In this document: piece after piece, positions 1 to 36,350 of the stretch
Layout of the letters: each line of letters opens with the position of its first letter
How positions within the stretch are numbered: the stretch's first letter is position 1
Assembly (NCBI GenBank): GCA_951406725.2
Contig: OX597823.1
Span: 31,620,001 to 31,684,000, forward strand
From: Octopus vulgaris
Taxonomy: Eukaryota
Direction of reading: 5' to 3'
Length of the DNA stretch: 64,000 bases
The notes under the pieces: generated by a model
Told to the model about the DNA's origin: nothing
The model's input: the letters and a program-made list of their open reading frames with translations, nothing else
Database searches by the model: none
Position numbers and translations under genes: made by a program

Positions 1-1134
1 GATACCTTTCGTGTTAATTCAAATAACAGCGGAAAACATTAAAATATGAAATGGAAAAAGAAAATAAACGAATTTACCTGACAACTCAATATTTGTTTTC
101 AAGCCAGCAAAGATTCACTCAAATATTACTAGGTCTTTTCATGGTATTTCGATCACTAAGTAAAAATGGGGTTTATAAATGCGAGTATGTAGACTTAAGC
201 AAAATCACGATAACCACTTTGAAATGACTTAAATAGTTATTTGGAACAGAAAAGGAAAAAAAAATCATTTTACAGTCAGAGTGGCCAACTGCCCCGCAGA
301 TATGAACATCTCTGCCAAAAATCAGTGTGTAGAAGAATATTTTTGGACAGCTACTTGGAAACCTCATACTTCCCTATTCAGATTTTAAATTTACATTTAT
401 ATCAATAATTAATGGTACACTTACCTATTTGTAAATGCTTCAGTGACAGTCTGGGAATGCTATGATTTTCAAGCGAAGAAAGAGAACAGCTAGCACGCGC
501 TTTTTGTGTTATTATTTATTGATATTTCCTTCAGAATGAGTACGTATATATCCCAGTTGTTAGTCCAGGATGAACGACTCTGGTTATTAATGTTGTTATT
601 ATTTTGATACTTTCTGACAATGTTATCATACAGAGAATTTTTGTTCCTCTTCTGGTGACCTGTTTCAGTGGAACTGTGCAACATTTCTGGGTGTATATTC
701 TTGGCCATCAATCGAGGAATGCATTCTGAGAAGCTCCTTTCCAACTTTTGATGTATGCAGATTTGATCCGTGGTTGGATTTCGACATTTGATGGTCTGTA
801 GATCTTGTCAAGGGGATACAATGTGCCATTCAAAGGTTACTGGGTAGATGTTAAGCCTCAATCGTTTTGTTTTCGTTTTAATTAGGAGTAGTCTACACCA
901 TTGCTGATGTTGAAATTCGTGATATGTGTTAACAATTTTGGGGTTGTAACGTCAATATTGAAGATCCCTTCTAGAATCCAAATGTTGAAGAACCCAAACG
1001 ATGGTATGAACATGGTACAGTAAAATAATTGTGGACTTTTGATTTATTGAATGTGAACAATTCCGAGGTCCATCTTTTCTTTATCCTGGTTTTATATTCT
1101 CTGGTTAAACGTTCCTTGATACAGATTCCATCAA

Positions 1135-1396
1135 CATTATTTACATTGTTTACAATTGACGGATATTTGTCCTCATCTTGTTTGTTGTTAACACAACGTT
1201 TCGGTTGATATACCCTCCAGCCTTCATCAGGTGTCTTGGGGAAATTTCGAACCTAATTTCCCCAAGACACCTGATGAAGGCTGGAGGGTATATCAGCCGA
1301 AATGTGTTGACAATAAACAAGATGAGGACAAATATCTGCAAATGTAAATAATGTAAATAATGTAAATAATTCCTTATCTCTTAAATATAGAACTGT
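1135..1396 (+). mobile_element. Penelope-like (pLTR-derived) inverted-arm element, family A, with 12-bp TSD
   Basis: About 110-bp inverted arms around a short spacer, plus an unpaired 3' tail ending cttaaatatagaactgt. Direct repeat agattccatcaa at 1123-1134 and 1397-1408. Same family at 22560 and 35691. Confidence 0.8.
1190..1235 (-). ncRNA. Minimal type-I hammerhead ribozyme motif (family A)
   Basis: Minus strand reads GACAC CUGAUGA A GGCUG-gagggtatat-CAACC GAAA CG UU GUGUU: stem I GACAC/GUGUU, intact core, stem II with one mismatch, palindromic AACGUU stem III. The plus-strand partner (1266-1308) has lost 3 nt of stem III. Confidence 0.7.
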
Positions 1397-22095: not shown

Positions 22096-22355
22096 ATATA
22101 TGTATGTATATCTTTATGTGTATGTGTCTTTGTGGCTGGGTTTGTCCCCCCCACCCACCACCATTGCTTGACAACTGAAATGGGTGTGTTTACGTACACA
22201 TAACTTAGCAGTTTGGCAAAAAGCTACCAATAGAATAAATACCAGGCTTACAAAGAATAAGTCCTGGGGTTGATTTGTTCAACCAAAAAGCAGTGCTCCA
22301 GCATGGCCACAGTCAGAAGGCTGAAACAAGTGAGAGAATAAACGAATAAAGAATA
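21729..22355 (+). mobile_element. CORE-type SINE (group 1) with an insertion in its internal microsatellite
   Basis: 5' part 21729-21800 and 3' part 22125-22355 match group 1. Confidence 0.8.
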
Positions 22356-22559
22356 ACATACCAATTACTGAAAGTTCCTTCATTTTATTCATTTGCATAA
22401 TTCATGTTCATTTGCATAATTTACATCTGCTTCTCAATGCTGACATGGGTTGTACAAAGTACATAATGAAACATTATTTTATGCCCTGATACTTTAGGAA
22501 TATATGCACATTGCAAAGATATATATATAAATATATACATACATAGATATACATATTTC

Positions 22560-22717
22560 CATTATTTATATTATTTACATTTGACAGATATTTATCCTCA
22601 TCTTGTTTATTGTTAACATGTTTCGGCTGATATACCCTACAGCCATGGCCATATGGCATAGTGGTTAAAAGTGCGGGCTACTAACCCCAAGTATCCAATT
22701 TCGATTCCTGGTAGTGA

Positions 22718-22753
<36 letters not shown>

Positions 22754-22940
22754 CAACATCGAAAAATACCTTGGGAATGAGAACCCAGGTTCGAAATTTC
22801 CCCAAGACACCTGATGAAGTCTGGAGGGTATATCAACCGAAACGTTGTATTAACAACAAACAAAATGAGAACAAATATCTGTCAAATGTAAATAAAGTAA
22901 ATAATGTACATAATTCCTCATCTCTTAAATATAGAACTAT
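22560..22940 (+). mobile_element. tRNA-headed, hammerhead-tailed element (family A, longest copy) with 5' inverted arm
   Basis: Inverted arm 22560-22644; tRNA-like head 22647-22719 (A box tggcatagtgg, gggCTACTAAccc anticodon-like arm, B-box-like tttcgattcc); (AAT)n(AAC)n linker; family A tail with hammerhead motif at 22806-22851. Confidence 0.75.
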
Positions 22941-23045: not shown

Positions 23046-23093
23046 GTCTCTGATGAAGGGATATCCCAAATATCTCAGAAACAGCTGTAAGAC
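23046..23093 (+). ncRNA. Minimal type-I hammerhead ribozyme motif (family C)
   Basis: GUCU CUGAUGA A GGGAUAU-cccaa-AUAUCUC A GAAA CAGCUG UA AGAC; perfect stem I, 7-bp stem II, palindromic ACAGCUGU stem III, GUA cleavage triplet. Confidence 0.72.
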
Positions 23094-23401: not shown

Positions 23402-23441
23402 GCTGTCCGATGAACAGGAACAGGAAACTCTGAGTAACAGT
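23402..23441 (+). ncRNA. Hammerhead-like motif (family E)
   Basis: GCUGU CCGAUGA acaggaacag GAAA CUCUGAG UA ACAGU; the element continues to about 23547 and is homologous to 62998-63203. Confidence 0.5.
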
Positions 23442-23593
23442 TTTTGTGATATTTTTTGCTACATTTTAATAAACCATATAGCTCTACTTCTGGTATTCGA
23501 GTACTATTTTTTCCACCTTGTTTTGCATTTATGTGATTACTCTGGTATGTGTGTGTGTATGTGTGTGTGTGTGTGTCTGCATATGTGTGTATG

Positions 23594-34989: not shown

Positions 34990-36350
34990 TCCTGGTATGG
35001 GTTAGATATGCCTTCACTAGCACAGCGCTTCACCCTTTGCAATTGTTTTGTGAGGTGCGGGTTCCGGAGATTAGCTTTTATTTCATTACTTCCTCGCTCT
35101 CTCTTCTTGCGCCAGTTCTGCTCGCTTAGCACTTCTTTATTCAACATCCATCCTCCATATTACATTCCATACCAACACAGTTTCCTCTCTTGCACACTAC
35201 ATTTGATTCCTCTTATACTTAGATTTTCTCTCCCTAATGTTATTCTGTCATTCATGTACACTAACATTTATCTGAGAATGCTTGCCTCATTTTTACTATT
35301 GTACACACTCCATTCAGCGCCTATGTCTTGTGACCATGCAGCATCAGTCATCGTACACAAACATTATATAATCTGCCTTTCACCCGAAAAGTAAAACTCT
35401 TTATTGCCAGCAGAGATAACAGCTCCCTGAATTGTTTTCACCCTGAACTTTCTAAAGCTACAATCTTTTCGAATCACTTTCTTTCATTGCTAATCATGTT
35501 GCTCACTTGGATAACAGAACTCCTTCTAGAAAACCAGTCATATCCGGCCCAAATATGCAACCTGTTTTGTGTTCAAACCGGCCTCTTGCATCTACCCGAA
35601 AACATTATTCAAACAATAAACAGACACGTCATCGAAATCTTGAAGTTGCGAGTTAATGCATGATTAATTCAAATCAATAAGAATAAATAACATTATTTAC
35701 ATTTGACGGATATTTGTCCTCATCTTGTTTGTTGTTAACACGTTTCGGCTGATATACCCTCCAGCCTTCATCAGGTGTCTTGGGGAAATTTCGAACCTGG
35801 GTTCTCATTCCTAAGGTATGTTGTTACAGCAACAAACAACGACGACGACGAAAAATACCTTAGGAATGAAAACCCAGGTTCGAAATTTCCCCAAGACACC
35901 TGGTGAAGGCTGGAGGGTATATCAGCCGAAACGTTGTGTTAACAACTAACAAGATGAGGACAAATATCCGTCTAATGTAAATAATTCCTCATCTCTTAAA
36001 TATAGAACTGTAAGAATAAATAAGTATTACAATTGATTGAATAATCTGAATGCTGAAGGTATAAGCATCTGAAAGAGTCTAATTTCTTGGATGTCCTTAC
36101 TGAGGAACTCTTCCTGTGCATCTGTTACATCCAAAGTCCTCAATTAATATACATACAGTTCCACTACACCTCTTAGGCATTAATAGGCTTCACTTTCGGC
36201 TCATGGAATTCCTACCTATTTCTATTCTGCATGTCTAGCTTGGCCCTTTTCCCTAACAGCAGTAGATTCCGGTCTGCTTTTTCTTACTTAGCCTTGTATC
36301 TTCACTAGGTTTAAGACGTCTCGATTATATATTATGTTGTATGCAGAACA
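34990..36350 (-). mobile_element. Decayed RTE-like LINE, split by a MITE fragment (about 35525-36065) and a family A element
   Basis: Minus-strand fragments resemble FRELLSLLAIK, NEASILR, LGRENLSIRGIKCSVQERKLCWYG and CRIEIGRNS of RTE ORF C-termini. Confidence 0.6.
35691..36011 (+). mobile_element. Penelope-like inverted-arm element, family A, with 12-bp TSD
   Basis: About 130-bp inverted arms; hammerhead motifs at 35737-35779 (minus) and 35895-35940 (plus, CUGGUGA); TSD aagaataaataa at 35679-35690 and 36012-36023. Confidence 0.82.

Follow-up and report, generated by a model that had tools for sequence, protein, structure and literature searches.

A tRNA-like head in front of a Penelope-type tail

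How does a tRNA-like segment come to stand in front of a tail that carries a hammerhead motif? The question is raised by a locus near position 22647 of the window, by which we mean the whole stretch of 64,000 nucleotides of Octopus vulgaris DNA analysed here. The earlier note had described at this place a head with A and B boxes, a linker, a tail with a hammerhead motif and an abutting inverted partial tail, all of which are present in the sequence. The same tail had been reported near 1135 and 35691, and inverted pairs of it are indeed found there, the second with the linker-like remnant that had been claimed for it. The features of the three loci are as follows.

22554..22644, minus strand: inverted 5' arm, a partial tail copy (tail positions about 60-153) without the last ~30 nt extension
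22645..22646, plus strand: leader remnant, family positions -2 and -1
22647..22720, plus strand: head, tRNA-derived by its sequence, with the A box at 22654-22664 and a B-box-like motif at 22699-22708
22721..22759, plus strand: linker (AAT)n(AAC)n, whose length varies among copies
22760..22938, plus strand: pLTR tail of a coding Penelope-like element
22806..22851, plus strand: putative minimal type I hammerhead, core at 22811-22817 and 22839-22846, predicted cut after 22846
1134..1396, no strand assigned: second locus, two tail arms placed head-to-head, with a 12-nt target duplication (1123-1134 / 1397-1408)
35690..36011, no strand assigned: third locus, two tail arms meeting in the linker, with a 13-nt target duplication (35678-35690 / 36011-36023)

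The CC at 22643-22644 is compatible with both arms of the focal copy, so that its start lies at -2 to -4. The locus is set in (TA)n, and its flanks share only 6 nt, with no clear target duplication. The copy itself is decayed: the first G of the B box is a T, stems I and II of the hammerhead are mismatched, and the ribozyme fold is predicted at +4.8 kcal/mol compared with about -10 in better copies. The short head-linker-tail unit is non-coding and measures ~290 nt, which is within the SINEBase size limit of <700 bp.

The unit is the 3' end of a coding element

The tail had been attributed to a Penelope-like partner with an RT and a GIY-YIG endonuclease, and such an element was found. At locus L004 the end of a reading frame directly precedes the head. 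A search with this ORF end gave 2,417 candidates, of which 30 loci were fetched, including the query itself and three near-identical duplicates. The head lies ~30 nt 3' of the stop codon in 29 of these 30 loci, and the tail then follows in 27 of the 29. Likewise, RT, ORF end and head stand on one strand within the flank at 11/30 loci selected by their RT. The Pfam model RVT_1 scored above its cut-off in two of five stretches tested (L095 and L081), the C-terminal stretch of the ORF matches GIY-YIG/HTH_animal clusters at 0.96, and homologues carry PF00078 and PF26215; Pfam gave no GIY-YIG match on the decayed copies of the family that were tested. Among the loci examined no intact ORF of the family was seen, the longest stop-free stretch being 465 aa. 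Two copies (L081, L108) are near full length and consist of a tail remnant, ORF, head, linker and tail; a tail upstream of the ORF, as in a partial tandem pLTR, is also present in L216 and L449. In tandem copies the tail, including the hammerhead region, forms an open frame that runs into the ORF N-terminus (oriented positions 410-520 of L081). Together, head, (AAT)n and tail make up the 3' UTR/pLTR of a coding Penelope/Poseidon-type element. A SINE head fused with a tail taken from elsewhere consequently had to be given up as an explanation, since the coding element carries the head within its 3' UTR, and a conventional LINE as the source of the tail is ruled out by the RT/GIY-YIG element that carries it. 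A search of viral contigs found no relatives.

The placement within the Penelope-like elements (PLEs) follows from the domain layout. In translations read by eye, the EN domain appears to hold CCHH residues and no CX2-5CxxC finger is seen between RT and EN, whereas control families of the same genome do have an extra finger at this place. By the criterion given in the accessible part of PMC8557442, this layout points to the Penelope/Poseidon clade.

Some loci are tandems in which a tail with the initial 120-260 nt of the ORF is joined straight to a head or tail (L447, L047/L451, L448, L011, L210, L189 and L450). With the rest of the ORF skipped, these tandems look like template jumps by the RT.

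Copy number and integration marks

The genome searched comprises 2.8 Gb in 227 contigs. The searches yielded at least 1,253 candidates with head plus linker as the query and at least 4,368 with the tail. The family is present in 17 of 120 evenly spaced 10-kb stretches, which scales to an estimated ~40,000 loci (95% range 23,000-64,000). At 25 of 29 other loci selected by their head, a tail follows on the same strand, so that the head-linker-tail junction, whose copies the earlier note had proposed to count, is multicopy. Chance nesting at a single locus is ruled out by this recurrent order together with the ORF-end loci.

Most copies are single arms or inverted pairs, and two-unit tandems are few. 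In 53 of 66 inverted pairs one arm is full and the other stops 30-40 nt short of the fixed 3' end. Target duplications of at least 8 nt were detected at 37/74 inverted pairs, against 0.9% in shuffled pairs; those of the family measure 9-14 nt. One arm reaching the 3' end and another ending 30-40 nt short is named as a PLE hallmark in the part of PMC8557442 that was accessible. The integration marks of the short copies are of the Penelope-like type.

At five loci (L019, L025, L026, L028 and L029) foreign repeats lie inside the (AAT)n linker and split the head from its tail. Such insertions suggest elements that target (AAT)n.

The tRNA-derived head and the hammerhead

A tRNA-like origin of the head, as previously proposed, is supported by the comparison of 59 natural heads with tRNA genes of the same genome: they align best, and gap-free, to the tRNA-Arg(TCG) gene, with a mean z of 7.3 against shuffles. 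The A and B boxes are conserved, being made up of the commonest letters across these heads. The assignment to Arg is tentative, as Arg(TCT), Ala and Cys score close behind Arg(TCG), in a comparison set of 25 distinct sequences that represent only Ala, Arg, Cys, Glu, Lys and Thr. Neither ARAGORN at default settings nor Rfam called a tRNA in the head; relaxed ARAGORN gave weak, partial tRNA-Ser(act)-like matches in up to ~18/59 heads. The cloverleaf fold is no longer kept, and RNAfold z-scores of the head are not significant, nor are those of the hammerhead (-1.3 to +0.6 for the two together). Judged by its letters, the head derives from a tRNA and has since decayed.

An A/B pair after the ORF was found in 0/25 related PLE loci. 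Furthermore, the 120 stretches and the window yielded no donor SINE in which this head stands before a different body.

The hammerhead motif of the tail is present as a putative minimal type I form, in which a palindromic ACGU replaces helix III. Both core blocks occur in 128/222 arms, and 123 of these 128 have 4-5 of the 5 pairs of stem II. The same layout with different stems is seen in 9/11 related PLE loci from other organisms, while Rfam scored no hammerhead in the family copies examined. Minimal hammerheads are thought to need dimers, according to the accessible part of PMC6765202. A pile-up of 5' starts at the hammerhead cut was not convincing, with only 4 of 25 starts inside the tail near the cut site.

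Most short copies begin at the head

The 5' ends were analysed in 125 pooled head-bearing arms that were not selected by their 5' end (13 from random stretches and 112 via tail queries, two of them from long coding copies). Only 13/125 continue past 20 nt upstream of tRNA position 1. The head start coincides exactly with a small palindrome (-7..+6), and 68/125 arms have an inverted-head neighbour; these were set aside as fold-back, a split made by script after which nine loci were re-classed by hand. The remaining 57 arms comprise 31 that end in -13..+3 (1.8 per nt), 13 that end further upstream (two or three of them at the locus edge) and 13 that end in +4..+51, inside the head (0.27 per nt); between -14 and -113, 7 ends were counted (0.07 per nt). 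Accordingly, 31 of the 44 non-fold-back arms that reach the head start stop within -13..+3, where ~9% would be expected from the upstream loss rate (P about 1e-23 at that rate and 4e-8 at a 30% chance rate). In the small random sample alone, 5/8 arms reaching +3 end in this interval. The 5' ends of the short copies cluster sharply at the head.

Several details bear on how this edge arose. Per nt, the rate of loss inside the head is about fourfold that upstream, which is what one would expect were the head the starting point of most templates. The peak persists where arms adjoin tail, linker, ORF or flank, and four tandem junctions without fold-back, in which the head is joined to the ORF (L447, L047/L451, L011 and L210), start at -6/-7. 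A pyrimidine-purine step is found at this position, 13 nt ahead of the A box, and such a step at this spacing fits a Pol III start. In reads of a related organism, 351 loose read ends fall at -7.

We consider it likely, with a probability of roughly two in three, that the short copies represent the 3' end (pLTR) of the coding Penelope/Poseidon-type element, that the tRNA-derived head acts as a Pol III promoter, and that the resulting RNAs are mobilised by the element's own RT/GIY-YIG protein; both Pol III initiation and mobilisation by this RT are what we infer from the copies. In an ancestral step, a tRNA or a simple tRNA retrocopy with an (AAT)n end would have entered the 3' UTR of the ancestral element. 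The A/B boxes of the head would then recruit Pol III, with a start about 6 nt before the tRNA-like part, and the short head-linker-tail RNA would carry the 3' end recognised by the element's RT. The element's own RT and GIY-YIG endonuclease would copy and insert this RNA. The minimal hammerhead may cut the monomer poorly, which would leave the head on most templates. Finally, at the 5' end of the RNA, the cDNA could fold back on the -7..+6 palindrome or jump to a second template, giving rise to the inverted arm.

A different explanation starts from the palindrome itself. Ordinary 5' truncation of a Pol II Penelope RNA might produce the same copies if the tRNA-like segment were inert and the palindrome captured cDNA ends by fold-back or annealing. 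The palindrome does coincide with the peak, and more than half of the arms have the inverted-head neighbours counted above. Moreover, 18/20 arms ending at -7 have an A at -8, where 34/35 coding copies have a T, so that short fold-back touches even some of the retained arms; at another locus of the window, the arms meet close to a palindrome of the tail. The step in read depth at the head is also modest: in a raw RNA run and two DNA runs the depth over the head is ~2-3 times that of the ORF end, a smaller step than the locus counts suggest. Short fold-back, however, would still need a free cDNA end at -7, and the peak stays both in the 31/44 non-fold-back arms and at the tandem junctions. Truncation also runs counter to the fourfold higher loss within the head, and it leaves the intact A/B boxes and the absence of TTTT described below unexplained. 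We regard it as unlikely.

The sharp edge might instead come from processing, if an RNase P-like or other nuclease trimmed a longer transcript just ahead of the tRNA-like segment. Such a cut would also give a discrete 5' end, and 6/125 arms begin exactly at position 0. An RNase P cut would take off the nucleotides upstream of the tRNA position, whereas most arms retain 2-7 nt upstream of 0, and the cloverleaf is not kept. This origin of the edge thus appears very improbable.

Transcription by Pol III itself, as put forward in the earlier note, is probable and gains indirect support from the pile-up of 5' ends at the head and from the scarcity of TTTT described below, but not from RNA reads, in which no start was found: one unstranded RNA run, from another organism, showed no start peak and equal coverage in both directions. 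In the same run the depth over the ORF N-terminus is about 100-fold below that of the tail, much as in DNA.

Short copies compared with coding copies

The short copies had also been thought to form a self-propagating family of their own. In such a family, short non-coding master loci would be transcribed and re-inserted over many rounds, independently of the coding element. A comparison of 31 coding arms with 65 short arms showed the same commonest letter at nearly all columns. Frequencies differ at tail column 55 (p 9e-6) and head column 63 (p 0.003), as such a family could produce, and the A at -8, which is absent from coding copies, could derive from inverted short source loci. Yet both variants of the two columns also occur in coding copies, a biased set obtained with a single query, and none of the columns is exclusive to the short copies. 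Fold-back accounts for the A at -8 and for its variable extensions, and the head-tail join was made within the coding element. An independent SINE family is accordingly not borne out and seems quite improbable as the source of the short copies.

TTTT content of the coding element

Pol III stops at runs of four or more T. From the stop codon to the end of the tail, 19/20 coding copies are free of TTTT, compared with 2/26 related PLE loci over the 300 nt after the stop, in windows that may include flank. Within the ORF the run is scarce as well: the near-full copy L081 has no TTTT between 297 and 3037 (2.7 kb), and 52.8 kb of aligned copies hold 16 TTTT, none at a site shared by more than two of ~30 copies, and no T5. 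By synonymous resampling ~4 TTTT per element would be expected (P about 0.02), and Markov nulls gave P values of 0.01-0.08. Other PLE and LINE ORFs of the same genome have 1.0-5.3 TTTT per kb, apart from a single stretch of 555 nt that lacks the run. Of 50 related PLE clusters, 29 have a similar T content and show a mean of 3.1 TTTT per kb; one of these T-matched controls (L367) is TTTT-free over its ORF, and in two further clusters the run is missing for 1.7-1.8 kb. All copies belong to one lineage, so that the scarcity of TTTT counts as a single observation. One TTTT, near ORF base 94, is common to the copies L447 and L047; at this place C is the prevailing letter in reads.

These data raise the possibility that the coding RNA itself is made by Pol III. 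The layout needed for such an RNA exists: L216 starts at -2 and runs head-linker-tail-ORF with about 340 nt of ORF, and in L449 a full pLTR precedes the ORF. A TTTT-free relative was predicted to carry a tRNA head as well, a prediction that failed for L367 (WLWD01002751.1), whose 2.1-kb TTTT-free ORF is followed by a T-rich 3' UTR without such a head. This weakens the idea for the whole element, and we consider a Pol III-made coding RNA possible but doubtful.

Relation to known systems

As far as the accessible parts of PMC8557442 and PMC4209133 describe it, the Penelope/Poseidon clade shares with the octopus element a single ORF, an RT with a C-terminal GIY-YIG domain bearing CCHH-type residues and no extra finger, as well as the partial-tandem pLTR, the inverted 5'-truncated arm, the 30-40 nt one-end extension and the minimal type I hammerhead. 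The start site described there is a pLTR promoter with a 5' UTR intron, and these parts mention no Pol III promoter. Unlike these elements, the octopus pLTR holds a tRNA-derived A/B-box segment, at which most copies begin.

Two other groups combine short repeats with hammerheads. The schistosome repeats Sm-alpha and Sj-alpha have a Pol III-type promoter followed by a hammerhead and occur as self-cleaving tandem arrays, with no coding parent named in the accessible part of PMC6765202. The octopus unit, in contrast, is part of a coding PLE and dispersed, and has inverted arms, target duplications and a minimal hammerhead. Non-LTR retrozymes, as presented in the accessible parts of 10.64898/2026.07.22.740005 and PMC7761336, are likewise short, non-coding and hammerhead-bearing, with kinship to PLE pLTRs and presumed PLE enzymes. 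They are tandem repeats processed to circles, and no tRNA head is described for them in these parts. In contrast to such tandem units, the octopus copies are dispersed monomers or inverted pairs that retain sequence upstream of the cut.

Pol III promoters derived from small RNAs are also found in the terminal repeats of Cassandra, Helenus and Ajax (PMC10886601, accessible part). Those are non-autonomous LTR elements, whereas the octopus case concerns a Penelope pLTR and the promoter-like segment is present in the coding element too. The tRNA SINEs with LINE tails, as described in the accessible parts of SINEBase (PMC3531059) and PMC5786205, share the short size, the tRNA head with A/B boxes, the 3' end of a partner and tens of thousands of copies. 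Here, however, the partner is a PLE and the head belongs to it; the simple repeat lies within the unit, whose 3' end is fixed. SINEBase (PMC3531059), in the part accessible, defines SINEs as LINE passengers made by Pol III, and autonomous elements as transcribed by Pol II; the 3' end of the octopus unit belongs to a Penelope-like element instead of a LINE. The octopus repeats OR1 and OR2 are called CORE-SINEs in the accessible cephalopod repeat literature, a class defined by a central CORE domain of ~60 bp after the head; here (AAT)n and the PLE tail follow the head directly. Altogether, the element is better described as a Penelope carrying its own SINE-like unit.

No PLE-borne SINE and no Pol III promoter in a pLTR was found in the literature covered, which lacks most subscription papers and supplements, and the accessible parts of four cephalopod repeat papers (PMC13282606, PMC8967140, PMC4758252 and PMC4824008) do not mention a PLE-borne SINE. 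Novelty is judged here by this literature; the repeat library of PMC13282606, Repbase or Dfam may already list the sequence under another label. If the preferred reading of a Pol III-driven pLTR unit is true, it would give the first clear case of a SINE-like family borne by a Penelope element, and it would offer a route to SINE birth from within the partner element. On the more doubtful reading, in which Pol III also makes the coding RNA, the element would amount to a SINE factory of its own. It could also form a bridge among coding PLEs, the schistosome Sm-alpha repeats and retrozymes. Two questions become testable with it, namely how synthesis of PLE RNA begins and what the minimal hammerhead does. 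The short copies, which number in the tens of thousands and have fixed 5' ends, would record how inverted pLTRs are built, by fold-back, one-sided extension and a 9-14 nt target duplication. In annotations, such copies probably go under the wrong label, either SINE or plain truncated Penelope.

Other repeats in the window and the genome

Besides the family described here, other tRNA-headed families with their own bodies and a weakly similar head (E 9e-4 or worse) are present in the window (9192, 30641, 47579 and 57091) and in many of the random stretches. Just 5' of the focal locus, at 22120-22345 (plus strand), lie the body and tail of another abundant repeat, whose tail we take to be a common cephalopod SINE tail. 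On its other side, read by eye, a second and different minimal hammerhead is seen at 23046-23093 (plus strand), with a 4-bp stem I, a 7-bp stem II and a palindromic AGCT loop; it lies 110 nt past the focal locus and is probably what remains of the pLTR of a different PLE family. A decayed hammerhead-like stretch, also noted by eye, follows at 23406-23445 (plus strand), and its flanks are similar to another pLTR.

Elsewhere in the genome, a young PLE family (L351, L352; G000 C16:20836200-20839800 and C4:105334726-105338326) has an extra zinc finger before GIY-YIG and is in this respect Neptune-like. It has many intact frames of 781 codons, the two fetched copies are 99% identical, and its 3' UTR holds tandem repeats with CCAAT-like and TGACGT motifs. 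A young LINE family (L360, L363) likewise has many intact frames, of 949 codons.
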